From Escherichia coli (GTDB lineage: Bacteria; Pseudomonadota; Gammaproteobacteria; Enterobacterales; Enterobacteriaceae): a stretch of DNA of 64,000 nucleotides. Positions 43,076-59,642 of the stretch are shown one piece after another. Positions within the stretch are counted from its first letter, which is position 1. The number at the start of each line of letters is the position of its first letter. The stretch lies in the NCBI GenBank assembly GCA_022969815.1, contig GCA_022969815.1_4535.1; one strand, given 5' to 3'. Below the pieces are notes generated by a model, which did not search any database, had not been told where the DNA came from, and saw only the letters and a program-made list of their open reading frames with translations. The position numbers and the translations under genes were made by a program.

Positions 43076-43429
43076 TCATAGTCTTCCTCCATCTTTAAGA
43101 CGACTCTTAACCCAGTGCAGACGATCTGGATCTGTGTGTTGTGAAGCATTTTCCGAATCAAGTAAGTAAGCCTTTCTTCCGAACGGGTAGGTTTCACATA
43201 AACCTGCTTCAATAAACTGATTATACATCTCTTTCATAGTGTTTTCGATTAAATACCAGTTACCTTCTGGAAGGTCTAAATCATACAACCAATACTCAAG
43301 ATTACCACACAACCCTACAGAAGAGCTAAACACGTCTTCCATAACAAGGCCCGTCTCGTCTCCATTTTCAGCCCAAGATAACCAAGCCTGATAAAAATCT
43401 AAAAGTAATTTACTTGATGCAATCTTCAT
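43076..43429 (-). CDS. member of 10-copy paralogous small-protein family (function unknown)
   Basis: FYQAWLSWAENG ... GLCGNL ... YPF ... HTDPDRLHWVKSRL; start at ATG with AGGAGAG SD. Confidence 0.55.
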   Translation of the reverse strand: MKIASSKLLLDFYQAWLSWAENGDETGLVMEDVFSSSVGLCGNLEYWLYDLDLPEGNWYLIENTMKEMYNQFIEAGLCETYPFGRKAYLLDSENASQHTDPDRLHWVKSRLKDGGRL

Positions 43430-43431
43430 GC

Positions 43432-43617
43432 TCACTCTCCTACACTTTCTGGTGTGCCATCCCAAGCACCTAAGACTTCTTTCAGGTGTGCACGGGGTTC
43501 TTTAAAATACTCTTCCATTTTATCCAGAAGATCGTCTGTGTTTGGGCTGTATCCCAACATCCCACGTAAAACTCTTTCTTCTTGCAAGACCAACCATCTA
43601 TGATAGCTTCGAATCAT
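43432..43617 (-). CDS. hypothetical protein (61 aa); start at internal ATG with GGAGG SD
   Basis: ORF track 43432..43749 would overlap upstream gene by about 150 nt. Confidence 0.4.
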   Translation of the reverse strand: MIRSYHRWLVLQEERVLRGMLGYSPNTDDLLDKMEEYFKEPRAHLKEVLGAWDGTPESVGE

Positions 43618-44071
43618 AATATTCCTCCAGGAGTTTCTCAATTCTCTGAACGGTCTTAGTATCCCAATAAACCTTCTTAAAGTCAAGTGTTCCGTGTGCA
43701 TTTCTTTTTGTTTCGAAGTAATAACCACCTTCGCGCTCCAAGCGATCACGGATCACTTCTATAAGATGATTTTTAGAGTTTTTTGTCAAGCAATAGTCAT
43801 ACTCTCCTTTTAAGAGATCTATAGAAGGTTGACGGTTATCTCCGACCTGGGAAATCTTCCAGCTAACCAGCGATCCTTGGATACCAACATCTGTCTGCTT
43901 CACAGAGAAGCCTTTTGAACCCCAGCCTCCCAATGTGACCATTGTTAGTGGTTCTCCTGTTAGAGAGCGGCTAAGGGTGTCATTACGTGGTCCACCTAAA
44001 GTGGAAAACCATTTGAAAATCTTCTTAAACATTTTATGCTCCTCTCGTTCAACATGCACAAACAATAACAC
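43598..44071 (-). CDS. hypothetical protein (157 aa)
   Basis: ORF with GAGAGGAG SD. Confidence 0.5.
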   Translation of the reverse strand: MLLFVHVEREEHKMFKKIFKWFSTLGGPRNDTLSRSLTGEPLTMVTLGGWGSKGFSVKQTDVGIQGSLVSWKISQVGDNRQPSIDLLKGEYDYCLTKNSKNHLIEVIRDRLEREGGYYFETKRNAHGTLDFKKVYWDTKTVQRIEKLLEEYYDSKLS

Positions 44072-44093
44072 CCTCCGAAGAGGGTGTCAATGA

Positions 44094-44321
44094 TTATTCG
44101 ATCACAAAAAACGTAGCATTCAAACGTCTGAATGTCGCAGGGCTATATCCGTGATCACACTCTTCAATGAACTGATCTGTAGTCTGATCGTAACTATAAT
44201 ACTGATCATTTTGGAAATGGAAGGACGCACAGAACAAATCATCTCCTACAGTCCACACTGCCACAAAGTTCTTACCGAACGGATAACCTTCAACTGCTTT
44301 CATTTTCCCTCCTCTTACCAA
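44094..44321 (-). CDS. hypothetical protein (75 aa)
   Basis: ORF with GAGGAGGG SD. Confidence 0.5.
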   Translation of the reverse strand: MVRGGKMKAVEGYPFGKNFVAVWTVGDDLFCASFHFQNDQYYSYDQTTDQFIEECDHGYSPATFRRLNATFFVIE

Positions 44322-44584
44322 GAAACATACATAGAGTAAACAAGATCATTACAGTCTGTCGAGAACGTAGCACTGCAACCTTGAGATCTTAATTTGTCAC
44401 AAATCCCGCGTACAATCGAAGCTTGTAGTTCTTTACCTTGCGGTAGACCTAAAGCTTTCACTGGGTGTTGAATCTGTATGTTGTAGTAACCCTCTTCGGC
44501 TGCTGTTGTGATTAAGGTTTTTGCTCGTTGGATATACTCAAAGTTCACAGAGTCTGCCAAAGCGTGTAAAGAATATGCGTCCAT
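44315..44584 (-). CDS. hypothetical protein (89 aa)
   Basis: ORF with GAGGAGG SD. Confidence 0.5.
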   Translation of the reverse strand: MDAYSLHALADSVNFEYIQRAKTLITTAAEEGYYNIQIQHPVKALGLPQGKELQASIVRGICDKLRSQGCSATFSTDCNDLVYSMYVSW

Positions 44585-44593
44585 GTTACCTCC

Positions 44594-44929
44594 TCAAGAA
44601 CGATCGAGTTTCATTAAAAATACAATCATAGCTGCACGCAGGGGTTTATCGTCTCCACGGGACGGTACACCTTCTGTTTTCGCAAGCCAACCGCGAGGAA
44701 AACCATCTTCCCCTGTTACAGGGCTGATACAAATCCTGTGTTTTACTATGATAGCCCAAGCATCTGCTGGATCATTGCAGTAATCATACCAAGTGTAATT
44801 GCCGTTGCAGTCATTTCCCACCGATCGTCCATCCGCATTGTGCGGATAACCTAAAGGCTTGACACCGTGGACTGCTGCAAACACACGTTTGTTGATTTCA
44901 AAATCACTCATTACTCCATATTCTGTCAT
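44594..44929 (-). CDS. hypothetical Cys/Trp-rich protein (111 aa)
   Basis: ORF with AGGAGAA SD. Confidence 0.5.
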   Translation of the reverse strand: MTEYGVMSDFEINKRVFAAVHGVKPLGYPHNADGRSVGNDCNGNYTWYDYCNDPADAWAIIVKHRICISPVTGEDGFPRGWLAKTEGVPSRGDDKPLRAAMIVFLMKLDRS

Positions 44930-45255
44930 GTTTTCTCCTTGTTTTTGGATACTGGAAGGATGTTGATCATAACTACACCGTTATAATCATAAGTATCGTT
45001 AATTTGAGTCTCTACTTCCCGAATATCATCCAGAGTGGGAGGCCAATTTGTAAATTGTACATCAATATTCCCCACACCCAGACTCTTACCCTCCCTCGGC
45101 CTGTAGTTGTACACAAAAACCGTATTGTAGGAGAGTTTTTGATGTTTGTTACGCTTCTTAAAAGTGCGGTCTAAGGCATAGATGCTTCCTATGACACATA
45201 CCGCTACAGCAACAACAACAATGTTAAAATAAAGTTCTTGTAAAATTGCACTCAT
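44926..45255 (-). CDS. hypothetical protein with N-terminal transmembrane helix
   Basis: NIVVVAVAVCVIGSIYAL hydrophobic segment. Confidence 0.5.
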   Translation of the reverse strand: MSAILQELYFNIVVVAVAVCVIGSIYALDRTFKKRNKHQKLSYNTVFVYNYRPREGKSLGVGNIDVQFTNWPPTLDDIREVETQINDTYDYNGVVMINILPVSKNKEKT

Positions 45256-45257
45256 TG

Positions 45258-45587
45258 TTATTTACCCCCTTTCAGTTTTGATTTAACCCATGCCAACCGT
45301 TCTTTGTTCATATGTTGCGTGCCGTGCTCATAATCCTGCATATAAGCTAAGTCACCAAATGGGTACAAGGTGTCTTGGAAATCTTTGAAAAGCATTTCTG
45401 CAAATGCTTCGGTAACTTCGTCAATTTCTTTTAATGAAAACCCTTGTTCCAGTAACCAGTAAGACAAGGAGTCGCAAAGCCCAACAAGTGTGCTGAAGGG
45501 TTTGACATTCTCTCTTTTCGGAGCCACTTCAGCCCAGGCCAACCATGCCTTAAGAAATTGTTGGATAATCACTTCGTTCTTTGTCAT
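45258..45587 (-). CDS. member of 10-copy paralogous small-protein family
   Basis: FLKAWLAWAEVAP ... GLCDSL ... YPF ... HMNKERLAWVKSKL. Confidence 0.55.
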   Translation of the reverse strand: MTKNEVIIQQFLKAWLAWAEVAPKRENVKPFSTLVGLCDSLSYWLLEQGFSLKEIDEVTEAFAEMLFKDFQDTLYPFGDLAYMQDYEHGTQHMNKERLAWVKSKLKGGK

Positions 45588-45595
45588 TTTAGCTC

Positions 45596-46276
45596 CTATT
45601 TAATGTTCAGTTTGTTAAGCAGACGTTGAACCGTATAAGGGTGCCATGTGGTACTGCCACGAACAGTTTCAATTTTCTCTTCAGTAAAGATCTCTGCAAT
45701 TCGAGTCAGAGATGCTCCTGCTTTCCTCATTAACGTAACTTTATCACGAAGCTTCTCGGCATACAAGGTGCTTTTATCATTTTTTCGAGATTGTCTGTAA
45801 TCTTTACGAGACTCTTTATATTTTGGAGATGCAGATCCTAAGAGAATACCTTTGCTCTTAGCTACTGCCAAACCTTTTTTGATACGATCTGCCATACCAC
45901 GTACTTCCTGTTCTGCAAGGACAGATAGAAGCTGAATAACCATCTTGTCTGCATCCGGCATGATCGCAATCTTAACGTCAATCATTTCCAAGAGGATTGC
46001 TACCGAGGCGTTGTTACGACCTAAACGGTCCACTTTAGCTACCAAAAGCGTTGCTCCGGTAGCTTTACACATCTCAACAGCCTTGACAAGTTCTTTACGT
46101 TGCTTCCAGTCGCCTTTACCTGAATAAAATTCAGAAAACTCTCCGATCACTTCAGCCTCCGGCACAGATTCCAAGAAATAACGGATATCGTTTTCCTGGC
46201 TCTGCATACCATACTGGGCTTCACCTTTCTTCTGTTTAGACAAACGGCTGTAAACAACAAACTTTTTCATGATCAA
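45596..46276 (-). CDS. serine recombinase (resolvase/invertase family) with C-terminal helix-turn-helix
   Basis: N-terminal VVYSRLSKQKK...QSQ (catalytic Ser context), LLVAKVDRLGRN, C-terminal basic HTH; GAGGAG SD. Confidence 0.7.
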   Translation of the reverse strand: MIMKKFVVYSRLSKQKKGEAQYGMQSQENDIRYFLESVPEAEVIGEFSEFYSGKGDWKQRKELVKAVEMCKATGATLLVAKVDRLGRNNASVAILLEMIDVKIAIMPDADKMVIQLLSVLAEQEVRGMADRIKKGLAVAKSKGILLGSASPKYKESRKDYRQSRKNDKSTLYAEKLRDKVTLMRKAGASLTRIAEIFTEEKIETVRGSTTWHPYTVQRLLNKLNIK

Positions 46277-46303
46277 CTCCTCAATCGTTATCAGGATTCC
46301 ATT

Positions 46304-46507
46304 TTACAAACTTGAAGCAGTTATTGTCAAGGAATTTATTGGCATCTTTTCCTGTTTCCAAACGGTGCATTGTTCTTTAAGGGCTATCTGCTCATTCTGC
46401 ACGTCTGATACCGCATTAGCAAAGAGGATCAGAAATCCCAAAAAGACCAACATCAATAACAGATTAAAGAAAGTTTGAAAACTCATGCATCCTCCCATTT
46501 GATCCAC
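46304..46507 (-). CDS. small membrane protein (67 aa)
   Basis: LLLMLVFLGFLILFA hydrophobic segment. Confidence 0.45.
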   Translation of the reverse strand: MDQMGGCMSFQTFFNLLLMLVFLGFLILFANAVSDVQNEQIALKEQCTVWKQEKMPINSLTITASSL

Positions 46508-46737
46508 AGAATCATTTCTTCAACGTAAACCTCTTTACCTTTGTTATTGATGAAAGTGTATTCTATGAACTCCGCTGTATACTTTTTGTTGTATTGCTCC
46601 GCTGCTGGGATCGGACACTTTGTCATACGTGTCTCAACCCATTGACGATGAATCGTTGCCTTGTTTTTGGGGTCAAACGGGTGTAAATAGTGCGGTTCTC
46701 CCTCTTGACTATGCCCCATTTTATTCTTCTTCGCCAT
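46483..46737 (-). CDS. hypothetical protein; start at internal ATG with GGAGGAGGTG SD
   Basis: ORF track 46483..46857 otherwise overlaps upstream paralog gene. Confidence 0.45.
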   Translation of the reverse strand: MAKKNKMGHSQEGEPHYLHPFDPKNKATIHRQWVETRMTKCPIPAAEQYNKKYTAEFIEYTFINNKGKEVYVEEMILWIKWEDA

Positions 46738-47065
46738 GCTGCACCTCCTCCAGACGGTCATACACCCAAGCAAGACGATCGAAGTTTTTGTGTTGGGTGC
46801 CGGACTTCTTCTCAATCCAATAACAAGGAATCCAACCTGACAGATCCCACTCGCCATCGAACGGATAGTTCCATTCTAAACCTTCCGCTTCAAACTGCTC
46901 TACCATTTCATCAGAGAGGGAAAGATACAAATCTTGGTCTTCCCCGCAATACACTTCCACTGCATGACACAAACCGCAAGCTTTGATGTTTTCGGGTGGA
47001 TTTTGACTCATAGCTTGATCCAACCACCACTCATAGAATTCCAACAACATGATACTTGATTTCAT
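46721..47065 (-). CDS. member of 10-copy paralogous small-protein family (divergent)
   Basis: FYEWWLDQAMSQNPPEN ... GLCHAV ... YPF ... HKNFDRLAWVYDRL. Confidence 0.5.
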   Translation of the reverse strand: MKSSIMLLEFYEWWLDQAMSQNPPENIKACGLCHAVEVYCGEDQDLYLSLSDEMVEQFEAEGLEWNYPFDGEWDLSGWIPCYWIEKKSGTQHKNFDRLAWVYDRLEEVQHGEEE

Positions 47066-47433
47066 TTGTCTTCCCCTTTCTCCATAAGCGGCGAAGCCGC
47101 GATCATCGACTTATAGACAACTTCGGCTGTTCGGGTTAGCCCCGTCCAGTCCTTCGCTGCCTCCAACATTTCTGGGGTAGGCTCTTTCGGGACCAAGACA
47201 TACCCTTCTGGGATACACATTCCACTCTCTTTCTTTTCGGCTTCTTCCGACATAACTTGCCACACTCCGTAGCTGCAATTCTCGAACAAACAGTAGAGTT
47301 CAGATCCTTCATCATCCACGACAATGAAACAGTTCTCATCTGCTACTTTGGCGTTGTAAATCCGACCTATGGTCAAATAGTCTCGGACATTAATAAACTT
47401 AGAGGCAAGAAACTTCACACGAATGTTTTTCAT
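47062..47433 (-). CDS. hypothetical protein (123 aa)
   Basis: ORF, coupled to neighbours. Confidence 0.5.
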   Translation of the reverse strand: MKNIRVKFLASKFINVRDYLTIGRIYNAKVADENCFIVVDDEGSELYCLFENCSYGVWQVMSEEAEKKESGMCIPEGYVLVPKEPTPEMLEAAKDWTGLTRTAEVVYKSMIAASPLMEKGEDK

Positions 47434-47669
47434 TTCTTAAACTCCGAAAAGCAACCCAAAGAGATGACCCCGCCATTATAGACGATAGCAAACTGGCACC
47501 CTGTTTTTGTGTCTGTGATGATGTAATCTAAAGCCCCAGTCATGCCAGTTTGAACAAAGCGATCCTTGGTTACAACTTTTGAGTCCGAGAAGCCGTTAAC
47601 TTTCGGCACAGTGTCTGCCATAACAGCAGGAGTCACCAGAAACAATGCGATCAGTAATGCCTTTTTCAT
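47430..47669 (-). CDS. small secreted protein (signal peptide)
   Basis: MKKALLIALFLVTPAVMA N-terminus; GGAGGA SD. Confidence 0.5.
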   Translation of the reverse strand: MKKALLIALFLVTPAVMADTVPKVNGFSDSKVVTKDRFVQTGMTGALDYIITDTKTGCQFAIVYNGGVISLGCFSEFKK

Positions 47670-47690
47670 AAATCCTCCAGTAACCTTTGG

Positions 47691-48005
47691 TTAGCCTTGA
47701 AATGAATTGCGACGACCAATACGGGCACAGCGATCACCTTCATAAGAGGTGAAATCCAAACTCACTCGGAAGCCAGGGTGGGTATCAGAGATCCCCACAT
47801 TCTTCACCCACATCTCGAAACTGCCAATATGTAAGGTCATAATGTTTACATACCATTCCAGCGTCACTTCTGTGCCGTCTACACCTGTGATGTAAAACTC
47901 ACGAGCGAAATGGGTGTCGTGCTTCTCTTTCTGACGCTCATACTTAGCGATTGCACCTTTCTCAACAGCCGCTTTCAGGATCACTTCTAATTCTTCTATT
48001 TGCAT
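47691..48005 (-). CDS. hypothetical protein (104 aa)
   Basis: ORF with AGAGGAGAGAG SD downstream of promoter. Confidence 0.5.
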   Translation of the reverse strand: MQIEELEVILKAAVEKGAIAKYERQKEKHDTHFAREFYITGVDGTEVTLEWYVNIMTLHIGSFEMWVKNVGISDTHPGFRVSLDFTSYEGDRCARIGRRNSFQG

Positions 48006-48035
48006 GTTCTCTCTCCTCTTGTTGTTGATGCAATC

Positions 48036-48064
48036 ACTATAATATGTCTGACACTCTCTGTCAA
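48036..48064 (-). promoter_or_regulatory. sigma70-like promoter (minus strand)
   Basis: minus strand TTGACA - 17 nt - TATAGT upstream of 47691..48005. Confidence 0.5.
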
Positions 48065-48276
48065 ATGTTTTCTGCTTCCAGTACTACTCTCTGGATCTGC
48101 ACGTCATCAATGTTTGCAAGACAAGTCCCTAAGATAAGCCCTGCTCGGAAAGGGGCTTGGAATTTGGAGGAAGCCCCCACTCGAATAGAGTATTCCACAC
48201 CACACATGGTGTAATCTACACGATACATATTCAAACCCATGAACATCAGTTCTTCTTCCGACTCTTCGATTTGCAT
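48061..48276 (-). CDS. hypothetical protein (71 aa)
   Basis: ORF with AGAGGAGA SD. Confidence 0.45.
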   Translation of the reverse strand: MQIEESEEELMFMGLNMYRVDYTMCGVEYSIRVGASSKFQAPFRAGLILGTCLANIDDVQIQRVVLEAENI

Positions 48277-48288
48277 TTTTATCTCCTC

Positions 48289-48843
48289 TTAGTTCCAACT
48301 AACGATGATGTGTTTGATAACCCCAAAAACGCTATATTCCGCTGTTGTCAACGTTACATCTAAACCTTTTGCACGCAACATTGTGGCTACTACATTCACC
48401 CCTTCTTTCTGTTTATCCATCTCTTCGTAAGAAGAAGGGCTGTTACACAAACCAAAACTCGAAGGTTCAAAATATTTTTGGAATTTCCCCTGTTCTGCAT
48501 AATCTTCAATCTCCGGCAGAATACAGTCTACCATTTCAGTAAAATGGGAATTTGCTTGCAGTGCTTTACTACGTAGTTTATCACGTAAACTTCCCACAAA
48601 CCCTTCCTGATCTTCTGTTTGCTCTTCTTCACAGAAAGGATGAAGTTCAGCCCAGTCCCAAACGTCTCCCTCTAAAGCAAACGTTGTGTTGTAGTTGAAG
48701 AAGGTGCAACGTGGAAGTTCCCCGTTGAAAGAGTCCTTCAGCAAAATATATTTCTTACCATTTGCGTGGAAGAGTTCCCCTTTGATAACCTTGCCTTTCT
48801 CGATATCGCTGTTGGTGGAACGGGTGCAGATAAACTGTTTCAT
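48289..48843 (-). CDS. hypothetical protein (184 aa)
   Basis: ORF with AGAGGAGAA SD. Confidence 0.55.
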   Translation of the reverse strand: MKQFICTRSTNSDIEKGKVIKGELFHANGKKYILLKDSFNGELPRCTFFNYNTTFALEGDVWDWAELHPFCEEEQTEDQEGFVGSLRDKLRSKALQANSHFTEMVDCILPEIEDYAEQGKFQKYFEPSSFGLCNSPSSYEEMDKQKEGVNVVATMLRAKGLDVTLTTAEYSVFGVIKHIIVSWN

Positions 48844-48897
48844 GATTTTCTCCTCTCTGTTTCGATGAGATGATTATGACAAAGACAAATCCCTCTG

Positions 48898-49224
48898 TCA
48901 ACCAATTATTTCTTCTGCTACACGTTCTTTTACCCAGTTCACGCGATCCACATTCAAATGACAACGGCTTCTTTCTGCTTCTAAGGTGTACTTTCCAAAA
49001 TTACTGTTGAAAGGCAGCACCATAACCAAACCTTTGTGGTAGAACTGCTCATGCATTTCATCCAGTACAGGTTCGTATCGTTCGCTTTCTCCCATATCGT
49101 AAAAATCATAGAGGTTCGTGCACAAACCTGTGCAACGGGTGAACGGTTCGCCTTCAGGAGCACCAGCTTCCAACCATGCCAAATACGTGCGGTAAAATGT
49201 TAATAGTTCTTCGCTCATTTCCAC
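48898..49224 (-). CDS. member of 10-copy paralogous small-protein family
   Basis: FYRTYLAWLEAGAPEGEPF ... GLCTNL ... LPFN ... HLNVDRVNWVKERV. Confidence 0.55.
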   Translation of the reverse strand: MEMSEELLTFYRTYLAWLEAGAPEGEPFTRCTGLCTNLYDFYDMGESERYEPVLDEMHEQFYHKGLVMVLPFNSNFGKYTLEAERSRCHLNVDRVNWVKERVAEEIIG

Positions 49225-49427
49225 TCTCCTTCATGATAGTAAACCTCAAAAGAATAGTAAGTGAACATGCTCATTGTAACACCTGCCATTTCTGGATCAA
49301 AGGGGGTGTTGTTATACATGTCAACTACTGCCTGACCCGCTGCTTTGGCATGTGCTGCTGAATCACAGGCACAAACATCTTTCTCCCACGGAAACTTGCC
49401 ATCATACTTAAGACGGACAATCCACAT
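49215..49427 (-). CDS. hypothetical protein (70 aa)
   Basis: ORF with GGAGGAA SD. Confidence 0.45.
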   Translation of the reverse strand: MWIVRLKYDGKFPWEKDVCACDSAAHAKAAGQAVVDMYNNTPFDPEMAGVTMSMFTYYSFEVYYHEGEWK

Positions 49428-49429
49428 GC

Positions 49430-49657
49430 TTATTCCTCCATCTCAAACCATTCAGGAAACACTTTACGGAAGACACGGGTTGTTTCCAAAAGGAATTCCA
49501 ATTCTTTTTCCAGATCTGCGTTCCAATCGTGCACTTTAACATTGATCGCCAATGCACTTGCACGACGACTCAATTCTTGACAGATGGGGTCGCGCAACAC
49601 TATTGAATCATAAAACTGACAAACAGCTTCAAGTTCATACCAATTATAAGCAGCCAT
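49430..49657 (-). CDS. hypothetical protein (75 aa)
   Basis: ORF with GAGGAGGATG SD. Confidence 0.45.
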   Translation of the reverse strand: MAAYNWYELEAVCQFYDSIVLRDPICQELSRRASALAINVKVHDWNADLEKELEFLLETTRVFRKVFPEWFEMEE

Positions 49658-49983
49658 TATTCATCCTCCTCTGCAATACGATCTCTCACCCAATTAATCC
49701 TGTCCACGTTCAGGTGACAGGCATCTGCGTCTGACTCTAAAACATATGCATCATAGTTCTCATTGAAAGGGAGTTCTTGACTCAACCCTTTATAGTGGAA
49801 CTGCGCGTGCATTTCATCTGATAAGGTTGTTATAATAGGATTGTAATTATCTCTGTGCACGTAATCGAACAAATTGGCACACAAACCACAATTTGGCAGA
49901 AACGGTCTACCGTAAGGGGCACCATCTTCGATCCAGGCAAGGTACTTTTTGTAAAACTTCATCAGATCTTTACTTGTTTTCAT
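49657..49983 (-). CDS. member of 10-copy paralogous small-protein family
   Basis: FYKKYLAWIEDGAPYGRPF ... GLCANL ... LPFN ... HLNVDRINWVRDRI. Confidence 0.55.
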   Translation of the reverse strand: MKTSKDLMKFYKKYLAWIEDGAPYGRPFLPNCGLCANLFDYVHRDNYNPIITTLSDEMHAQFHYKGLSQELPFNENYDAYVLESDADACHLNVDRINWVRDRIAEEDE

Positions 49984-50221: not shown

Positions 50222-50222
50222 G

Positions 50223-50567: not shown

Positions 50568-50627
50568 TTTTCTCTCCTTATTGTCTTGATGTGGTAAGCA
50601 TACCATACAGAAATCAGGTGTCAAGCT

Positions 50628-52307: not shown

Positions 52308-52380
52308 TTAAACCTCCTACTCGTACATTAAGAAACCTAAAATAATAATCAGGACAACGAAAATAATAGTCTCTATCATA

Positions 52381-52626: not shown

Positions 52627-52635
52627 ATCCCCTCC

Positions 52636-52848: not shown

Positions 52849-52851
52849 TTC

Positions 52852-53007
52852 CTATCCTTCTGCTTGATTAATTAATTCTTTACACCGTAAGGCAAACTCT
52901 CGTGTAGACTGGAAGTGGACGTAAGCTGTTGACCACTTTTGGAGTTCTTCTCTACCAAGGGCTATCAACTCTTTATCTGTAAGTTTCATAGCTTCTTGTA
53001 TTGTCAT
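52852..53007 (-). CDS. possible small protein (51 aa), not in ORF track
   Basis: ATG with GAGGAA SD; fills the only gap between 52848 and 53012. Confidence 0.4.
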   Translation of the reverse strand: MTIQEAMKLTDKELIALGREELQKWSTAYVHFQSTREFALRCKELINQAEG

Positions 53008-53011
53008 TGGG

Positions 53012-53233
53012 TTATTCCTCGATCACTTCCACATCCCAAGAGAAGAATACATAGTCACAACCTTCCCAAACATCATCTTCCAGGATCTCACAACCTTCCA
53101 CTTTAGCCATCTCCTCTTGGGAAACGAAGAATGTTTGCAGATCATCACTGAAAAGGTGTGCTTCAACAATAAAAGGAAGTTGAACATTTTCAAAACCTAC
53201 GTAGCCTGTAACATCGATAACTTTAATCTTCAT
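53012..53233 (-). CDS. hypothetical acidic protein (73 aa)
   Basis: ORF with AAGGAGAA SD. Confidence 0.5.
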   Translation of the reverse strand: MKIKVIDVTGYVGFENVQLPFIVEAHLFSDDLQTFFVSQEEMAKVEGCEILEDDVWEGCDYVFFSWDVEVIEE

Positions 53234-53445
53234 GAGGGTTCTCCTTTATAAAGTAAACCTCTTAGTTCACATTCCGCAACCAATAGACGGTTAGCTTGAT
53301 TGTCCATAGACACGTCTATCTCCACACTCCAAGCATTAATATACACTTCGTTGATCTTTGCGTCAAGCATTTGTGCAACTAAAGCTACCGCTCCGGCGTA
53401 CTCCAGTTTAATCTCTATAATCATTTGAGATGATCCCTTGCCCAT
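53230..53445 (-). CDS. hypothetical protein (71 aa)
   Basis: ORF overlapping neighbours. Confidence 0.5.
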   Translation of the reverse strand: MGKGSSQMIIEIKLEYAGAVALVAQMLDAKINEVYINAWSVEIDVSMDNQANRLLVAECELRGLLYKGEPS

Positions 53446-53708
53446 TGGATACGGACAGCATTGAGATGAGAACCATCTTCCTTATACTCTCTCGCGTAAT
53501 CATCCCAATCTTTATTGAACGGGAGTTCTGGGTCCAACCCCGCAGCTTCGAACTGCTTTGACATTTCATATAGCAAATCATCATCACAATAACCGAAGAA
53601 ATAGAGATTAGTGCATAAACCCCACTCACGGCGGAAAGGATTGCCGTCTGGTGCTCCCGCGTCCACCCAATCTGCGTAAGCTTGATAGAACTCTCGTAAT
53701 GTTTTCAT
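53421..53708 (-). CDS. member of 10-copy paralogous small-protein family
   Basis: FYQAYADWVDAGAPDGNPF ... GLCTNL ... LPFN ... HLNAVRIQWARDHL. Confidence 0.55.
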   Translation of the reverse strand: MKTLREFYQAYADWVDAGAPDGNPFRREWGLCTNLYFFGYCDDDLLYEMSKQFEAAGLDPELPFNKDWDDYAREYKEDGSHLNAVRIQWARDHLK

Positions 53709-54061
53709 CGTTTAATGTTCTCCATCAAAAATTTGATAGCCTCTGCCTGGTCTTGACGGTGATCCAGATATTCTTTATCCCAATTTATATTGTAACCACC
53801 CTGAATACAAGGGTGAATGACCCCACGAATCAGATCGTAGTTATCAATCAGACGGATAACCTTAATATCATCGATCAGAATCCTCCAACCTGGCGGCAAA
53901 TCTACAGGAACGCCGAGAAACAATGGCAGATCCTTAGTAGGCTCCTGATAAAGAGCAATCAGGTCTTCCAGGGTTTCAATTAAAAGCTGTGCAGTGACCG
54001 ATGGATTTGAGAGACTCATGTAAGCATCACGTAGGTTTTCGTAGTAAGCTAATGTTTTCAT
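53705..54061 (-). CDS. hypothetical protein; start at internal ATG with AAAGGAGAAAA SD
   Basis: ORF track start 54097 would overlap upstream paralog. Confidence 0.5.
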   Translation of the reverse strand: MKTLAYYENLRDAYMSLSNPSVTAQLLIETLEDLIALYQEPTKDLPLFLGVPVDLPPGWRILIDDIKVIRLIDNYDLIRGVIHPCIQGGYNINWDKEYLDHRQDQAEAIKFLMENIKR

Positions 54062-54369
54062 TGGTTTTCTCCTTTTTCTAAGTGGTTTCTTACCCAAGCA
54101 ATACGATTAGGGTCAAGGTGCATGTTGTTTTGGTCCAAACATAAATCAAAAGCTTCTTCCCCGAAAGGATAGGCAGCAGAGAGTCCCGCATCTTCAAACT
54201 GATCGGCAAGTTGACGCTCTAAGCGAGTAAGTATCAAGATATTGTCAGCGCCAGTGTAATATCGAAGATTGCTACACAGCCCTACACCACGGGAGAAAGG
54301 TCGGTAAGGCGGAGCGCCATTATCTAACCAATCTGCGTATGCCTTGTAATACCCTTCTAATGTTTTCAT
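54058..54369 (-). CDS. member of 10-copy paralogous small-protein family
   Basis: YYKAYADWLDNGAPPYRPF ... GLCSNL ... YPF ... HLDPNRIAWVRNHL; ATG with AAGGGG SD. Confidence 0.55.
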   Translation of the reverse strand: MKTLEGYYKAYADWLDNGAPPYRPFSRGVGLCSNLRYYTGADNILILTRLERQLADQFEDAGLSAAYPFGEEAFDLCLDQNNMHLDPNRIAWVRNHLEKGENQ

Positions 54370-54524
54370 AACCACCCCTTATCTTGATAACCTTTAGAAA
54401 ACCCTTCTTCCCACTCTTGAAACTTTTCAGGATGTTTATTGGGATCGTAAGGATTGTGGCGGCAAAACATACCGAATTTATAACCCTGTGCGTAGCCTTT
54501 ATCGAATGCGTTCTTACTCTCCAT
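54366..54524 (-). CDS. possible small protein (52 aa), not in ORF track
   Basis: ATG with AAGAGGAGAG SD; stop overlaps downstream ATG. Confidence 0.4.
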   Translation of the reverse strand: MESKNAFDKGYAQGYKFGMFCRHNPYDPNKHPEKFQEWEEGFSKGYQDKGWL

Positions 54525-54536
54525 TGTTCTCTCCTC

Positions 54537-54809
54537 TTATTCAACGTTCCAGAAAACACCACGTTTGTCTGTAATGTCTATATGATACTCCTCCCACATC
54601 TTAGTTACAAGAGGTCTTTCCACATAACCATGAAAATAAACTTCAGAATGCACCCCGTAAGCTGTGTAATTGTCAACAGTCCCTTCTACCTTGAAGATCA
54701 CCATGTCCCCACCTAAAAATCTTTCAAAGACCAAGGTGAAACAGTCGAACTTAACAACGTCTCCCTCGGAGAGGGAGATATCTTTCACCTTACAGAAATG
54801 TCCGATCAT
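54537..54809 (-). CDS. hypothetical protein (90 aa)
   Basis: ORF with AAGGAGAGAA SD. Confidence 0.5.
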   Translation of the reverse strand: MIGHFCKVKDISLSEGDVVKFDCFTLVFERFLGGDMVIFKVEGTVDNYTAYGVHSEVYFHGYVERPLVTKMWEEYHIDITDKRGVFWNVE

Positions 54810-54818
54810 TTTCTCTCC

Positions 54819-55010
54819 TTAATACACATCACCTACAAACCAGATTTCTGGATCGCCATACTGATCCTTCTCGTAAGATTTGTAGACACTACAGCAATAT
54901 TTCAAAACACCGTCCACAAGGATTGTTGATCTTTCTTCTGGAATCTCTGTGATCTCCCCTTTACGGGTTTCGAAGATGGTATCACCCTTTTCAATCAGTC
55001 GGATTTTCAT
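54819..55010 (-). CDS. hypothetical protein (63 aa)
   Basis: ORF with GAAGGAGG SD. Confidence 0.45.
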   Translation of the reverse strand: MKIRLIEKGDTIFETRKGEITEIPEERSTILVDGVLKYCCSVYKSYEKDQYGDPEIWFVGDVY

Positions 55011-55011
55011 A

Positions 55012-55209
55012 TCATACCTCCTTCAATGCGATCAGTGCGTTAATCAGATTATCAACACCTTGATCATCCAGTGCAATAACATCAAAGTTAAACCCTGTAT
55101 CAGTTGGTACTTTACGTGTTATGGTGTAATAGTCCCCTTGATGACGTTCAACATATGCGTATGGGTAACTGGTGTTCGGATCATGTTTTACGCGAATAGA
55201 TGTTTTCAT
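55012..55209 (-). CDS. hypothetical protein (65 aa)
   Basis: ORF with AAAGAGGAG SD. Confidence 0.45.
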   Translation of the reverse strand: MKTSIRVKHDPNTSYPYAYVERHQGDYYTITRKVPTDTGFNFDVIALDDQGVDNLINALIALKEV

Positions 55210-55679
55210 GTTTTGTTCTCCTCTTTAGTTGCAACACGGAACTTATTAGCTTCTCTCACCTGGAACATGAAGTCTTTCTTCTTCATAATCCCGATGGACA
55301 TTTCATCCAGTTCTTCTGGATGGATCTGGAGATTACGGCGATCGGACAGGAACCAAGATTTCTCCCACCAGAAGCGTTGATCCTCCTCCTTGTGGTGTTT
55401 GTACTCCTCTTTTTCTTTTTCTGTGAGGATCTTGAAGCGATTCTTTCCTTCCCAACGCATTGCTGTGTTAAAAGGAATACCGTTATCCCCATTATACACT
55501 GCGGAAGTAGGAAGGCAATAGCCAGTTTCTGCGTCGATCATTTGGTAATGGAACTCACATTCCAGTTCAACGTATTCTAAATCACCATAAAAATCACTGA
55601 TCAAGAAAGCAATGTAAGTTTCACCATGTTCGGGAACAAATTCTTGCTTTGTCAACATCTCCAACTTTAAACCTGCCAT
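55206..55679 (-). CDS. hypothetical protein (157 aa)
   Basis: ORF with AAGGAGAAAG SD. Confidence 0.55.
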   Translation of the reverse strand: MAGLKLEMLTKQEFVPEHGETYIAFLISDFYGDLEYVELECEFHYQMIDAETGYCLPTSAVYNGDNGIPFNTAMRWEGKNRFKILTEKEKEEYKHHKEEDQRFWWEKSWFLSDRRNLQIHPEELDEMSIGIMKKKDFMFQVREANKFRVATKEENKT

Positions 55680-55691
55680 TGCTTTCTCCTT

Positions 55692-55943
55692 TTAGTCGAA
55701 CCAGTTATATTCAGAAGGGTAACGAGTATAGTTTGGTTTATACCCCAGCCTTTTCATCTTAACAGCCATACGAGTGAAGCCAAAAGTTTTTTTACCTTTA
55801 GACATAAACTTCTTCCCACTCTTCATTGGCTTCTTAGGATCTTTGATCGTCTGGTTTAACGCTCGCGCAAGCCACAAAGTGTATGCGCTCGGCACTTGAT
55901 TAACTTTCATCTTGTTACCTTTCATTATTTCACCTCCGACCAA
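55692..55943 (-). CDS. hypothetical basic protein (83 aa)
   Basis: ORF overlapping upstream gene end. Confidence 0.45.
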   Translation of the reverse strand: MVGGEIMKGNKMKVNQVPSAYTLWLARALNQTIKDPKKPMKSGKKFMSKGKKTFGFTRMAVKMKRLGYKPNYTRYPSEYNWFD

Positions 55944-56224
55944 TCAACAGTGATCCACTCGTATGCCCCGTTCGCGTCCTTTTCTTTATAAACAACAAGG
56001 CCACGCTCACGGAGGATTTCCACTGCTTCATCCATCCACTTCACCTGATTGTGGATCTGCTCTGGGTGGGTGGGAGAATTATTCAGACCAAAATCGGATG
56101 GCGTGAAATTTCTTGAAGAGTTTCCTGCCCGTGCTTCAGCGAAACATGTCTCAATCACCTCTTCAATAGGGAATTGGAAGGAAGCCTCTTTTGCAATACG
56201 GCGCAGTTGATCAGTCAAATTCAT
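55925..56224 (-). CDS. hypothetical protein (99 aa)
   Basis: ORF with GAGAGGAGAA SD just downstream of promoter. Confidence 0.5.
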   Translation of the reverse strand: MNLTDQLRRIAKEASFQFPIEEVIETCFAEARAGNSSRNFTPSDFGLNNSPTHPEQIHNQVKWMDEAVEILRERGLVVYKEKDANGAYEWITVDWSEVK

Positions 56225-56255
56225 TTCATTTCTCCTCTCATTTGTGTATGCAATG

Positions 56256-56284
56256 ATTATCTACCAACGTGATCCCTATGTCAA
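56256..56284 (-). promoter_or_regulatory. sigma70-like promoter (minus strand) with GGATC in spacer
   Basis: minus strand TTGACA-tagGGATCacgttggta-GATAAT. Confidence 0.5.
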
Positions 56285-56289
56285 GCTAT

Positions 56290-56802
56290 TTATTCAAAAT
56301 AAACTTTAACTTGTGCCGTGCTGTAGCGATTGTAAATCTCGACCACGGCTTTAGCGTTATCTTCTTTATAGGATTGTGCCAGATCTTCCGCATCTCGGAT
56401 ATTTCCGGCAACGCCCACAAGAACAAGATCCACCATTACAAGATATTTTTTATCTTCTGGACTCTCTTGAGAAGGCTCTTGTACTGGCTCTTCCTTTGGT
56501 TCTGGTGGCAAACCAACCTCTGCCTCAACATAAGAGTCAAACCAAGTGATATCGTTAAAATGCTTTAACTCATGTTTGGACAGCAGCATACCACAATCAA
56601 CGAAAGCACCTGCATTAGCTTCAAAGACATGCCCTTCAAATGTTTGGAACTTAACCACATCCCCTTTTTCTGTTGTCTCCAACACCAGGAAGTGTTTTGG
56701 ACCCAGCAGATCTGAAATCTTTCGGTTCAGATTGACAGCTTCACGGAACGCATTGTACTCTTTTGTATTTTTGAATTTATAGGAATGCCCTTGAATAAAC
56801 AT
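56290..56802 (-). CDS. hypothetical protein; tandem paralog of 56815..57333
   Basis: shared N-terminal MF.xG..Y.F and C-terminal VD.V.V ... VEIY ... ST pattern. Confidence 0.55.
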   Translation of the reverse strand: MFIQGHSYKFKNTKEYNAFREAVNLNRKISDLLGPKHFLVLETTEKGDVVKFQTFEGHVFEANAGAFVDCGMLLSKHELKHFNDITWFDSYVEAEVGLPPEPKEEPVQEPSQESPEDKKYLVMVDLVLVGVAGNIRDAEDLAQSYKEDNAKAVVEIYNRYSTAQVKVYFE

Positions 56803-56814
56803 AATAGTCTCCTC

Positions 56815-57333
56815 TTAGTCAAATATCACATTACTTACGAGTTTCGCTGTGCTACGCAGAGTATAAATCTCCACAAGCTTCCCTGGACTCTCTTTCTTCG
56901 CTTTCGTGGCTCTTTCTTGTGCCTCTGAAAAAGATGATACAGTATGCACTACTACGTAGTCAACAATAACTGCAAACTTTTTAGGCACAATATCTGCATC
57001 AGGGCGATCGTCGTGCGCGGAAACATCCTTACCTGGCTGCGGTGCCAGCGGCGGCAAGCCTACCATTAACAACGGACCTCCGTCAAAGAAATATCCGATC
57101 TCATCATGTCCAATAAGGAAGCGATCCATTTGAGCATCACCTACTCCTTGATCCCAAAACAGCTTCTTATCTTCTACGAAGATGATAAGAGATAGGACAT
57201 TCCCGTAAGCGTCTGTTTTGACTACTTCAAACCAAAACTCTCCGATCGCTTCAGCCAACTTTTTAGAAATTGATTGAAACAACTCTTGGTAAGTGCCTTG
57301 TCTGAAACGATAGATATTACCTGGTTTAAACAT
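56815..57333 (-). CDS. hypothetical protein; tandem paralog of 56290..56802
   Basis: see paralog pattern; AAGAGGAGA SD. Confidence 0.55.
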   Translation of the reverse strand: MFKPGNIYRFRQGTYQELFQSISKKLAEAIGEFWFEVVKTDAYGNVLSLIIFVEDKKLFWDQGVGDAQMDRFLIGHDEIGYFFDGGPLLMVGLPPLAPQPGKDVSAHDDRPDADIVPKKFAVIVDYVVVHTVSSFSEAQERATKAKKESPGKLVEIYTLRSTAKLVSNVIFD

Positions 57334-57355
57334 TAGTGTCTCCTCTTATGTTAAA

Positions 57356-57814
57356 TTATTGTTCTACTTCACGCAACCACGCTAAAGCCTCTTCTGGAGA
57401 TTTATCGAAGTCGTTGAGCAGTTCCTGCTCCAACTCCTCTTTCATTTCATTTAGCACTTGTAGTTGACGTGCCTTTTTCCACAAGGCTACACGATAATCA
57501 ACACCTTGTGGTGCTTCTTCTGCCACTTTTACATTACCTGTCGGGCAGCGAGGAAGATAGTCTTCAATATCTTCCAAGGCACGGCGATAATTGGGGTCCA
57601 TGTAGTTCACACGAACACGATTACATTCTAACAAAGTGGCACGGAACACTTCATAACGTGTTTCGGATAGAATGTGTTTCACACAGACAGCACCAGTATC
57701 TTCTGAAATTACACTATACACTTCCAGTAGGCTGGAGTTTCTCTTGACATAATCTGTAACACATTGCACATATGCTCCCAATATTGTGGAAGCTCTCACT
57801 GGTTTTTCGCTCAT
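57356..57814 (-). CDS. hypothetical protein (152 aa)
   Basis: ORF with GGGGAGGTAG SD. Confidence 0.55.
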   Translation of the reverse strand: MSEKPVRASTILGAYVQCVTDYVKRNSSLLEVYSVISEDTGAVCVKHILSETRYEVFRATLLECNRVRVNYMDPNYRRALEDIEDYLPRCPTGNVKVAEEAPQGVDYRVALWKKARQLQVLNEMKEELEQELLNDFDKSPEEALAWLREVEQ

Positions 57815-58050
57815 TTTCTACCTCCCCATAATGCCACCATTTTATTAAAGATGGAAGCGCGTCGTGCGCGAGATGCTAACATACGATTGGCTTCTTCGTA
57901 GCCATCGAACAAACGATCTGTCAATACCAACGCCAGTGTCTTCTCTTGCAGAGACTGGCAATTATGTTCAGGACGACAGTCGTGCCCTGCATCGAAGTAC
58001 AGATTGTTCAGATAATTGTTTGCTCTCTCATTCTGCTTTGCAGTGATCAT
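57811..58050 (-). CDS. hypothetical protein (79 aa)
   Basis: ORF with AAGGAAGAG SD. Confidence 0.5.
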   Translation of the reverse strand: MITAKQNERANNYLNNLYFDAGHDCRPEHNCQSLQEKTLALVLTDRLFDGYEEANRMLASRARRASIFNKMVALWGGRK

Positions 58051-58059
58051 ATCTCTTCC

Positions 58060-58290
58060 TTAGTGAACAATTTCATATTCATGAGGAAGGAAAACATAAT
58101 CTTCCCCTTCACCTGCATCTTCTTCATCCCAGAAGAAACCTGGTATCTCAATCATCTTCGAAAAGCGCACATGCGCCAACCCACTATACCCTATCTGTGC
58201 ATTCAGCACAACGGGTAACTCTGCACCAGTCAGACCTACATACCCGCAAGCGGTTTCAATACGAATTTTCATACGTTTCATGTTATGCAT
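58060..58290 (-). CDS. hypothetical protein (76 aa)
   Basis: ORF, coupled to neighbours. Confidence 0.5.
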   Translation of the reverse strand: MHNMKRMKIRIETACGYVGLTGAELPVVLNAQIGYSGLAHVRFSKMIEIPGFFWDEEDAGEGEDYVFLPHEYEIVH

Positions 58291-58492
58291 CTTTCATACT
58301 CTCCATGAAGTGACGAGCAACAGGGTTCCCGTAGAAATATTCATTGATGAAATCGATCACACACGTTTCACTGCCTGTCACAACGGACGGTGCGAAGTTT
58401 CGGAACTGCACGAGTACACGACTTGCGTTAGCAAGGGTGTGCACACGATCAGTGTTAGCTAAATACAAGGATACAGTTTTCATATTTGACAT
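58283..58492 (-). CDS. hypothetical protein (69 aa)
   Basis: ORF with GAGGAGATTG SD. Confidence 0.5.
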   Translation of the reverse strand: MSNMKTVSLYLANTDRVHTLANASRVLVQFRNFAPSVVTGSETCVIDFINEYFYGNPVARHFMESMKDA

Positions 58493-58551
58493 TTCAATCT
58501 CCTCATTGGCTATCTGTTATGCGCGGTATGCAAACCACTATACAGACATTT

Positions 58552-58905
58552 TTATTCAATGCAAGCATTATTTACATCTTCGATGCGATCTTTCACCCAC
58601 TGAATACGGCGTGCGTTTTCATGACTCTTATTAGCGTCACACTCTAATGCATAATCCCCATAACCGTAGTTGAACGGAAAGTTGTAGTCCAGTTTTGCAC
58701 ATTCAAACTGTTTCCTCATTTCATATTTCAGACTGTTCAACATGTTGGCACGCCATCTTTCAGTTGAAGCACTGTAACTCCCCACATACGCTTCCAGACA
58801 ATTACACAGTCCATTCGTCGTGCGATCCATTTCAGGATGGTTTGCCATCCATGCTTTGTAGAAACGAAGCAATGTTGCACTGCTCAACGGAATGTTACTT
58901 TTCAT
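58552..58905 (-). CDS. member of 10-copy paralogous small-protein family
   Basis: LLRFYKAWMANHPE ... GLCNCL ... FPFN ... HENARRIQWVKDRI; ATG with GAAGGAGG SD. Confidence 0.55.
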   Translation of the reverse strand: MKSNIPLSSATLLRFYKAWMANHPEMDRTTNGLCNCLEAYVGSYSASTERWRANMLNSLKYEMRKQFECAKLDYNFPFNYGYGDYALECDANKSHENARRIQWVKDRIEDVNNACIE

Positions 58906-59260
58906 TATTACCTCCTTCACAATCCTGGATACGATCTTCTACCCATTGCACACGCAGTTTGTTGATATGACATTTTCTGTTTTCACATTCTTCCTCGTAG
59001 TCGAAGAAGTTAGTATTGAAAGGTGTGCTTTTAGACAACCCTGCATAGATAAACTGTATCATCATTTCATCACCTAAAGCTTCACGCATCTCCCAGAACA
59101 TATCCACATCTGCACCATGCTTCGGATACAATACTTCCCATGCAAAATTGCCTAAACATACGCACAAGCCATTCGCTGTGTTCGCCAACTCACTACGGTT
59201 AGCCATCCAATTCTTATAGAACAGCAGAAGAGTATCACTACTCAAGGGAATATTTTTCAT
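58895..59260 (-). CDS. member of 10-copy paralogous small-protein family
   Basis: LLLFYKNWMANRSE ... GLCVCL ... TPFN ... HINKLRVQWVEDRI. Confidence 0.55.
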   Translation of the reverse strand: MKNIPLSSDTLLLFYKNWMANRSELANTANGLCVCLGNFAWEVLYPKHGADVDMFWEMREALGDEMMIQFIYAGLSKSTPFNTNFFDYEEECENRKCHINKLRVQWVEDRIQDCEGGNNEK

Positions 59261-59261
59261 A

Positions 59262-59642
59262 TCAGGCTCCTTTACGATTATGCAAACAATCTTTCACTCG
59301 TTCTTGCACCCACTCTACACGAAGCTTGTTTTCATGCGCTCTGCTGTGGTTATGCTCTCGCACATATTCTTCGTAGTTCACATTAAAGGGAACACTGACA
59401 GACAATCCTGCACAACGGAATTGTTTCTTCATTTCTTTTAATGTTGCATCACTTATGGCACAAAGCTGTTTTGCCTGTTCCTCGCTGAAATTACTGTCCC
59501 ACATCTCATCCCAGATAAAGGTATCCAAGCATACACATAACCCATGCCTTGTGCGCTCTTTGGTATGATGATCAGCAAGCCAACTTTCATAGAAGGCTAA
59601 CAACACTGGACTACTCAACGGAACATTTTTACTCTCTTGCAT
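59262..59642 (-). CDS. member of 10-copy paralogous small-protein family
   Basis: LLAFYESWLADHH ... GLCVCL ... VPFN ... HENKLRVEWVQERV; ATG with AGAGAGGAGA SD. Confidence 0.55.
   Translation of the reverse strand: MQESKNVPLSSPVLLAFYESWLADHHTKERTRHGLCVCLDTFIWDEMWDSNFSEEQAKQLCAISDATLKEMKKQFRCAGLSVSVPFNVNYEEYVREHNHSRAHENKLRVEWVQERVKDCLHNRKGA

Follow-up and report, generated by a model that had tools for sequence, protein, structure and literature searches.

Ten diverged copies of one small-protein family in the putative early region of a phAPEC8/phi92-type coliphage

The DNA examined here, 64,000 nucleotides (nt) deposited under Escherichia coli (contig GCA_022969815.1_4535.1 of assembly GCA_022969815.1; hereafter the window), derives from a phAPEC8/phi92-type myovirus (Stephanstirmvirinae) and raises the question of why a single phage carries ten diverged versions of the same small gene. 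The ten genes are distributed over a 17-kb region (Table 1) that is 97.8% identical to the corresponding DNA of Escherichia phage phiWec188 and ca. 94% identical to that of phiWec179/181/186 and 'Pseudomonas phage PsgM04F', while the identity to phAPEC8-type phages is 83 to 88% across about one third of the region; the relatives are 150-kb myoviruses of the Stephanstirmvirinae. GenBank already contains the ten genes, annotated as hypothetical proteins, and PHROG and pVOG already list the family; a literature search returned no description of the ten-copy array, of its variation among relatives, or of the conservation pattern of the family.

A hidden Markov model (HMM) of the family, comprising the ten copies and 38 database relatives, was scored against every six-frame open reading frame (ORF) of the window. 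It matches exactly ten genes of 95 to 126 amino acids, all on the minus strand, with E values from 1e-24 to 7e-54, and since the next-best ORF reaches only E = 0.04, the similarity cannot be put down to chance and the window contains no eleventh copy. These are the ten ORFs listed in an initial annotation of the DNA, all of which are present. The copies align over their full length, with G-L-C, the F of Q-F, P-F, H, R, and W as invariant columns, in agreement with the view that they form a paralogous family with positionally conserved motifs. The motifs as first written are approximately right, though not general: F-Y is found in eight copies out of ten and the W that ends the first motif in six, while QF-x-x-x-GL is present in eight and GAP-x-G-x-PF in only three to four. 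Copy 2, the most divergent one (18 to 34% identity to the other copies), is without the QF...GL motif. Each copy has a Shine-Dalgarno-like motif within ca. 15 nt upstream of its start. In the case of copy 4 the ORF is real, but its true start is more probably the ATG at 49218, which gives a protein of 106 amino acids, as annotated for the orthologues in relatives, than the GTG at 49224 chosen initially. The ten copies encode soluble proteins of ca. 100 amino acids, mostly acidic (isoelectric point, pI, of 4.2 to 5.4 in eight of the ten). Their arrangement is also as first described: the last three copies are in tandem, copies 8 and 9 overlapping by 11 nt and copies 9 and 10 being separated by one base, and the remaining seven are interspersed among unrelated small genes.

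The conservation pattern, established for up to 204 domains from 188 proteins, distinguishes a nearly invariant set of residues from three hypervariable segments. The former comprises F-Y...W in helix 1, G-L-C-x-N-L at the start of helix 2, E-M-x-x-Q-F in helix 3, followed by P-F, a Y, and H/Y-x-N-x-x-R-x-x-W-V in helix 5. The Cys of G-L-C is kept in 203 of 204 domains, and its Gly and Leu in 198 and 194 of 204, respectively; the Arg of helix 5 is found in 202 of 202 domains, the Pro and the Phe of P-F each in 202 of 203, and the Trp of helix 5 in 196 of 200. The Phe and Tyr of helix 1 are kept in 198 of 201 and 194 of 202 domains, the Gln and Phe of helix 3 in 184 and 197 of 203, and the Glu of helix 3 in 176 of 203. 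The Asn of H-x-N is present in 176 of 202 domains, with Asp in 20, while the His of the same motif is present in 157 of 202, with Tyr in 16 and Arg or Trp in others. Over the 204 domains, G-L-C, P-F, R, and W, which do not vary among the ten copies, are conserved at 96 to 100%. The hypervariable segments occupy profile columns 23-31 (with insertions of up to 16 residues), 38-62, and 81-95; two of them vary in length, including columns 38-62, which link helix 2 with helix 3.

Copies 4 and 2, only 22% identical to each other, were modelled with AlphaFold2, giving a mean predicted local distance difference test (pLDDT) of 92.6 and 93.2 and a predicted template-modelling score (pTM) of 0.85 and 0.87, respectively. 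Both are confidently predicted five-helix proteins of the same order, with a long helix 1, a short beta-bridged loop, and helices 2 to 5. A Foldseek search of BFVD with the copy-4 model retrieves family members from phages of Rhizobium, Burkholderia, Achromobacter, Delftia, Klebsiella, and Erwinia with a query-normalised template-modelling (TM) score of 0.75 to 0.84, while the comparison of the same predicted structure with PDB gives no solved structural relative and no enzyme neighbour. As modelled, the family consists of a very constant core, possibly containing a pocket, and of variable surfaces.

All ten copies match phrog_2510 (PHROG 2510, 'unknown function') with E values from 1.3e-18 to 1.8e-31 at profile positions ca. 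4-113; the sister PHROGs 6418, 27059, and 2176 give weaker matches. The phrog_2510 profile has 219 positions, and the copies of the window, being single domains, cover about its first half. The members include phi92 gp006 and gp010 as well as inny_220/221/229/233, which the inny record labels as pVOG VOG7392. The opinion that no named domain can be assigned is upheld: no entry came near its cut-off when the ten copies were scanned against Pfam and NCBIfam or when 125 diverse members were scanned against Pfam (the best E values, 0.011 to 0.17, are to unrelated families, and there is no weak but consistent signal over the 125 members), a PDB sequence search with either set gave no match, and PADLOC models gave only two single-member matches at chance level (E of 0.0072 and 0.04). 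The only assignment is thus to a PHROG of unknown function, and no well-characterised housekeeping domain was found in Pfam, NCBIfam, or PDB.

The family is large and widely distributed among phages. When 1.84 billion representative proteins were searched exhaustively with the profile, 1,699 clusters (50% identity) were obtained at E <= 1e-3 and 630 at E <= 1e-10, to which a word-indexed homologue search with the 125 diverse members added ca. ten more, none informatively named. In a tblastn search with three copies against 50,697 phage records the family was found in 135 to 249 records. The carriers comprise N4 and N4-like phages of Escherichia, Achromobacter, Erwinia, Klebsiella, and Alcaligenes, the T7-like Ralstonia phages RSB1 and phiAp1, Rhizobium phages, phages of 45 to 48 kb such as IME207, Akira, Phleasolo, and Bas80, then PTXU04, the 175-kb Yersinia phage JC221, and an Erwinia jumbo phage; structure matches in BFVD add phages of Burkholderia (JG068, BcepSaruman), Delftia, and Pectobacterium. 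Among 72,556 plasmids there is one match, located among phage-type accessory genes beside a Phd/Doc pair, and the family is essentially phage-restricted. One scan of bacterial genomes for a prophage context of the family found nothing. Most genomes carry a single copy, usually close to the genome end: in 17 of the 24 records below 80 kb among the matches listed the gene lies within 10% of the record end, and in RSB1 and phiAp1 it lies in the first 3 to 5 kb. It is the first gene of an operon in a 43.5-kb phage contig and part of an operon adjoining a CI/Cro-like switch in a contig of a temperate phage.

The domain is also found in longer proteins. Two- and three-fold tandem fusions within one polypeptide are represented by P0043, P0045, P0046, P0049, and P0057, in P0137 the domain is fused behind DUF551, and phi92 gp010 (L003 3307-3891; 194 amino acids) consists of the domain and a 70-residue C-terminal extension (PHROG 27059); the fusion partners are only DUF551 or PHROGs of unknown function. 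The natural tandem and DUF551 fusions indicate that the domain is an independent module, and the tandem ones suggest that the domains may work side by side.

The family includes a gene of a model phage. N4 gp3 (YP_950481.1; NC_008720 1214-1528), a protein of 104 amino acids, matches the family HMM with E = 2e-19, shows 25 to 34% BLASTP identity to eight of the ten copies, and contains G-L-C, P-F, and H-L-N-x-x-R-I-x-W; judged by its sequence, it is a bona fide family member, although N4 has this single copy as against ten in the window. Among N4 gp1-gp14, gp3 alone matches an ORF of the window. Its gene, the third from the left end, is situated in the early region between gp2 and the genes of the N4 RNA polymerase RNAPII, gp15/16. 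Both gp2 and gp15/16 are treated as early products in a review of N4, which does not mention gp3 (PMC4496689). The match indicates a position in the infection programme and not a mechanism.

The ten copies belong to a block of ca. 75 small minus-strand genes extending leftwards from ca. 59.7 kb down to ca. 38.6 kb of the window, with a reversal of the GC skew at ca. 38 kb; apart from a serine recombinase and an ORF carrying the label 'DNA ligase', every relative lists the genes of the block as hypothetical. Copy 10 is the first gene of the block and is preceded by ca. 1.5 kb without a long ORF. In phAPEC8, ESCO13, and the phi92-like phage inny the equivalent block opens with a tandem pair of family members following a long non-coding region, and in phi92 both the record and the block begin directly after the left terminal repeat. 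The designation of the block as early-like is therefore supported by the first place of family members in three genera, by the layout of phi92, and by the location of N4 gp3. About 100 nt upstream of copy 10 lies the 18-nt motif GGAATAATTGATAGGGAA, which recurs with zero to three mismatches in the corresponding place in PsgM04F, phiWec179, phAPEC8, ESCO13, and inny, and also upstream of phi92 gp001; the retention of this right-hand site ahead of the block in three genera makes a promoter or operator function probable. The block contains more sigma-70-like sites than expected (62 observed, 40.9 +/- 6.9 expected), which makes it look like an early or accessory region transcribed by the host RNA polymerase, with the timing read from the position; a site of this type also lies between the 18-nt motif and copy 10 (Table 1).

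The same 18-nt sequence occurs a second time, so that a perfect inverted repeat of GGAATAATTGATAGGGAA, with arms 17,449 nt apart, flanks the whole paralogue block; these are the only two matches at up to three mismatches in the window, as compared with 0.09 expected. An ORF of a serine recombinase ('DNA invertase') is located inside the block bracketed by the repeat. The left-hand arm is confined to the phiWec-like genus; phAPEC8, ESCO13, and inny have the right-hand site only. An invertible early block, i.e., a segment of the Hin/Gin type inverted by a serine invertase, was considered but is not favoured, as the flanks and the block are collinear in six related genomes and no inversion is seen.

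The array is old rather than the product of a recent burst. The paralogues are 18 to 49% identical (mean 31%), and for nine of the ten copies there are 1 to 19 foreign clusters (below 70% identity) that outscore the best sister copy in the window; copy 4, for instance, is 40 to 45% identical to homologues in Phleasolo and PTXU04, phages of 48 to 60 kb, and is thus as near to them as to most of its sisters. Recent amplification in situ was rejected for the same reason: the paralogues are as distant from each other as from the homologues of other phages. Copy number varies among the relatives. Counted with the HMM on the stretch given for each genome, there are ten copies in the window (64 kb read) and in PsgM04F (23.5 kb), nine in phiWec179 (19.2 kb), seven in phAPEC8 (50 kb) and in ESCO13 (22 kb), at least four in inny (22 kb), and at least two in phi92 (first 30 kb). 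Ten copies had been called unusual for a phage, and ten is indeed the highest number among the genomes sampled.

The presence of individual copies is mosaic. Copies 1, 2, 7, and 10 are confined to the phiWec-like genus; orthologues of copy 1 are 94 to 98% identical in PsgM04F and phiWec179, with no close one in phAPEC8 or ESCO13. Copy 3 has an orthologue in ESCO13 (87%) and none in phAPEC8, copy 4 one in phAPEC8 (96%) and none in ESCO13, and copy 5 has orthologues of 83% identity in both. Copy 8 has orthologues of 64 to 68% identity in three genera. One change of copy number can be followed in the alignment of phiWec179 with the window: copy 7 and the 130-codon gene at 53705-54097 are missing from phiWec179 (or were gained reciprocally), and a single gene joins the upstream sequence of copy 7 to the coding body of copy 6, the switch falling within the 12-nt identity ATGAAAACATTA that the 5' ends of both copies share as a direct repeat. 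As this junction shows, copy number changes by recombination between similar 5' ends of neighbouring copies.

Four further pairs of paralogues are found in the same leftward run (BLASTP E of 3e-6 to 1e-10, 26 to 33% identity; Table 1), so duplication is a general feature of the region; no family in the block besides the ten-copy one exceeds two copies.

Selection on the copies was assessed from the ratio of non-synonymous to synonymous substitutions (dN/dS, Nei-Gojobori) between orthologues. Gene-wide values of 0.05 to 0.32 denote purifying selection; every copy is therefore a maintained gene and, by this measure on the aligned sequences, is kept by purifying selection. The outlying value of 0.71, obtained for copy 9 against phiWec179, rests on 21 changes, 5 synonymous and 16 non-synonymous, and the same copy gives 0.21 against PsgM04F. 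The hypervariable segments change at about double the rate of the conserved ones, with a pooled ratio of non-synonymous to synonymous differences (pN/pS) of 0.42 as against 0.20, and they approach neutrality only in the promoter-proximal trio, copies 8 to 10, where pN/pS is 0.4 to 0.8 (0.62 to 0.77 in copy 8, the gene-wide dN/dS of which is 0.26 to 0.32), with a single value of 1.24 based on seven changes. The suggestion of diversifying selection is not supported at the level of whole genes by these data, the copies being old and dN/dS low, and gene-wide positive selection was rejected on the same purifying values.

Taken together, the copies are best explained, with a probability that we put at about 0.4, as early, cytoplasmic, host-directed modulators in which a constant core is combined with variable segments that give each paralogue its own target. 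The proteins would be made early in infection, from the block whose first genes are family members, and would act in the host cytoplasm as stoichiometric modulators. The constant core would provide the fold and perhaps one common contact, whereas the variable segments would direct each paralogue to its own target or target variant among host housekeeping or defence proteins, and the array would accordingly be a repertoire of specificities and not a gene-dosage device. What we infer here is that expression is early, as deduced from position, that the targets belong to the host, and that each copy has its own. Anti-defence is the leading, still unproven, sub-case; the PDB comparisons revealed no match in sequence or fold to solved anti-defence proteins (Ocr, ArdA, anti-CRISPRs, Acb2, Tad1/2, Gad1, and others). 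A role as a host-range determinant in the receptor-binding sense, as could be understood from the initial annotation, is unlikely because the products are small, mostly acidic, fully helical predicted proteins encoded by small genes of an early region; the acidic pI also makes DNA binding unlikely.

Several observations weigh against such modulators. The phage-type plasmid locus and two metagenomic phage contigs place the family among accessory or early genes only, with no known anti-defence neighbour, and the literature search yielded no paper on the function, a partner, or a phenotype of any member. About seven polar positions (C, N, E, Q, H/Y, N, and R) are strongly conserved over the 204 domains, a pattern that is more typical of a catalytic or ligand pocket than of a pure binding scaffold; if this conserved site is the functional one, the ten copies share their chemistry and the idea of one target per copy is weakened.

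The same pattern is the basis of a somewhat doubtful alternative, in which the protein is a small thiol-dependent enzyme or a binder of a small molecule or metal, with one pocket common to all copies, built from the Cys located at the N-terminal end of helix 2 and from Asn, Glu, Gln, His/Tyr, Asn, and Arg, and serving as a nucleophile, a metal or cofactor site, or a nucleotide-sequestering site, while the variable segments tune localisation or substrate. The N-terminus of a helix is the classic position of a reactive thiol, and it is there that secondary structure prediction places the Cys, which is more strictly kept than the adjoining Gly and Leu, is retained in every domain of the tandem fusions, and is accompanied by the fully conserved Arg and by E, Q, and N at 87 to 91%. 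On the other hand, it adjoins the hydrophobic stripe L34/L38/F41 of helix 2 and, by helical periodicity, may be a core residue, the fold resembles no enzyme, the 125 diverse members give no signal in Pfam or NCBIfam, and the His is not invariant, which is evidence against a Cys-His dyad. A Cys-His hydrolase of the papain-like or amidotransferase-like type was rejected, since His is replaced by Tyr, Arg, or Trp in about one fifth of the domains and the fold is all-helical. In a more far-reaching but unlikely reading the protein would be a hitherto unrecognised adaptor or inhibitor scaffold of a new fold, in which the Cys/Arg/Glu/Gln/Asn face binds a common partner or ligand and the hypervariable segments recruit or block differing host proteins. 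The common partner would belong to the host machinery (a protease or RNA polymerase, for example), be an effector of the phage, or be a molecule of immune signalling. The array would then correspond, in a virus of bacteria, to the multigene families that determine host range in large eukaryotic viruses, with single-specificity versions represented by N4 gp3 and the 1,699 clusters of relatives.

A role internal to the phage is rather improbable. The proteins would be cofactors of the early-to-middle switch in transcription, of replication, or of DNA entry, with paralogues serving different phage promoters or partners, and in line with this N4 gp3 is encoded directly beside gp1 and gp2, cofactors of the N4 RNAPII (PMC4496689), and the promoter-proximal position of family members is kept in three genera. 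Against it speak the variable copy number and mosaic presence, which are typical of accessory and not of core genes, the diversity of transcription strategies among the phages that carry the family (N4-like, T7-like, large myoviruses, temperate), the acidic character of the proteins, and the lack of any match of the other N4 products among gp1-gp14 in the window. That the genes are decaying duplicates, chance ORFs, or selfish filler is effectively refuted: relatives annotate them as nothing but hypothetical proteins and one copy is dispensable in phiWec179, yet the ten frames are intact and carry Shine-Dalgarno-like motifs, orthologues are under purifying selection, the folds of copies 4 and 2 are predicted with confidence, and homologous clusters occur across many phage groups.

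Two known systems resemble the array of putative host-directed modulators in part. The class I early proteins of T7, such as the anti-restriction protein Ocr (gp0.3), are also small and acidic and encoded at the genome end expressed first; the likeness is one of position only, as no PDB entry, that of Ocr among them, resembles the family in sequence or structure. The ankyrin/PRANC genes of poxviruses, multigene host-range families of large eukaryotic viruses, are similar in logic only, with many diverged paralogues, a constant and a variable module, and varying copy number; there is no homology, the fold is different, and in the phage family a common partner of the constant part is hypothetical.

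The orphan family extends over N4-like, T7-like, large myovirus, jumbo, and temperate phages of Proteobacteria and contains a gene of the model phage N4. Ten old, individually conserved versions in one genome, together with relatives having nine, seven, at least four, and at least two, constitute a natural experiment, and this copy-number series, along with one mapped deletion junction, provides material for asking what each copy does. If the copies have different host targets, they would form a new class of host-takeover or anti-defence proteins, which would help to explain how broad-host-range therapy coliphages cope with diverse strains; if all share one activity, the nearly invariant Cys directs attention to a still unexplored thiol chemistry in the early phase of infection. 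The family lends itself well to experiments, but it does not amount to a proven new mechanism, and current expectations are so far uncontradicted.

Table 1. Family copies and other features of the window
Feature	Coordinates	Strand	Remarks
Copy 1	43076..43429	-	117 aa (amino acids), pI 4.5; HMM E 9.5e-32; phrog_2510 E 1.5e-24; dN/dS 0.05-0.12
Copy 2	45258..45587	-	109 aa; HMM E 1.1e-24; phrog_2510 E 1.6e-21; dN/dS 0.18-0.24
Copy 3	46721..47065	-	114 aa, pI 4.2; HMM E 3e-32; dN/dS ca. 0.2
Copy 4	48898..49224	-	108 aa from GTG 49224; HMM E 5.9e-31; phrog_2510 E 1.8e-31
Copy 5	49657..49983	-	108 aa; HMM E 2.2e-34; nearest paralogue copy 4 (49%); dN/dS 0.11-0.15
Copy 6	53421..53708	-	95 aa; HMM E 3.1e-27; dN/dS 0.07-0.12
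Copy 7	54058..54369	-	103 aa; HMM E 5.5e-25; absent from phiWec179
Copy 8	58552..58905	-	117 aa; HMM E 7.4e-54; third gene of promoter-proximal trio
Copy 9	58895..59260	-	121 aa; HMM E 1.6e-46; second gene of trio; dN/dS 0.21 vs PsgM04F, 0.71 vs phiWec179 (few sites)
Copy 10	59262..59642	-	126 aa; HMM E 2.4e-48; first gene of trio and block
12-nt ATGAAAACATTA, 5' end of copy 6	53697..53708	-	recombination junction partner
12-nt ATGAAAACATTA, 5' end of copy 7	54358..54369	-	other junction partner; direct repeat
Sigma-70-like site TTGTAA-17-TATGAT	59724-59696		upstream of copy 10; site search
18-nt motif GGAATAATTGATAGGGAA, right-hand	59742..59759	-	conserved; probable promoter or operator element
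18-nt motif GGAATAATTGATAGGGAA, left-hand	42275..42292	+	other arm of the inverted repeat
Serine recombinase ORF	45596..46276	-	'DNA invertase'
Paralogue pair	41201..41452/41439..41744	-	
Paralogue pair	48289..48843/55925..56224	-	
Paralogue pair	53012..53233/58060..58290	-	
Paralogue pair	56290..56802/56815..57333	-	
Fur-box-like site	59993..60011		upstream of block
Fur-box-like site	60958..60976		upstream of block
15-nt perfect inverted repeat	60489..60503/60601..60615		upstream of block
31-nt imperfect repeat	60724..60825		three head-to-tail copies, 71% identity
Five tRNA genes	400..1176	-	Tyr-GTA, Ser-GCT, Ser-TGA, Arg-TCT, Met-CAT

The ca. 1.5-kb stretch without long ORFs upstream of the block has some features of its own. 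It contains two Fur-box-like sites, one of which, GATAATGATAATTATTCTC, differs by two mismatches from the 19-bp E. coli Fur consensus GATAATGATAATCATTATC; it is a single site reported on both strands (with two and three mismatches), as compared with 0.05 chance matches expected. The second, AATGATAACCATTATCATC, also resembles the consensus; the region is AT-rich and both may be due to chance. Iron-dependent control of phage early genes would be unusual. The same non-coding region comprises the imperfect 31-nt repeat and several other short repeats and palindromes, among them the 15-nt perfect inverted repeat; an Rfam scan of 59500-64000 gave no family match. At the left edge of the window there are five tRNA genes, as expected for this phage group.

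Finally, several GenBank records labelled with hosts other than Escherichia carry DNA matching this coliphage region. OR584014 (Pseudomonas phage PsgM04F) is 94 to 95% identical over 95 to 97% of the region and OP562383 (Acinetobacter phage ABPW7) 87% identical over one third of it, while MG0656xx (Campylobacter phages A110a, B15, and C3) and MH252123 (Klebsiella phage ZCKP1) contain orthologues of family members. These host labels may reflect contamination or misassignment.

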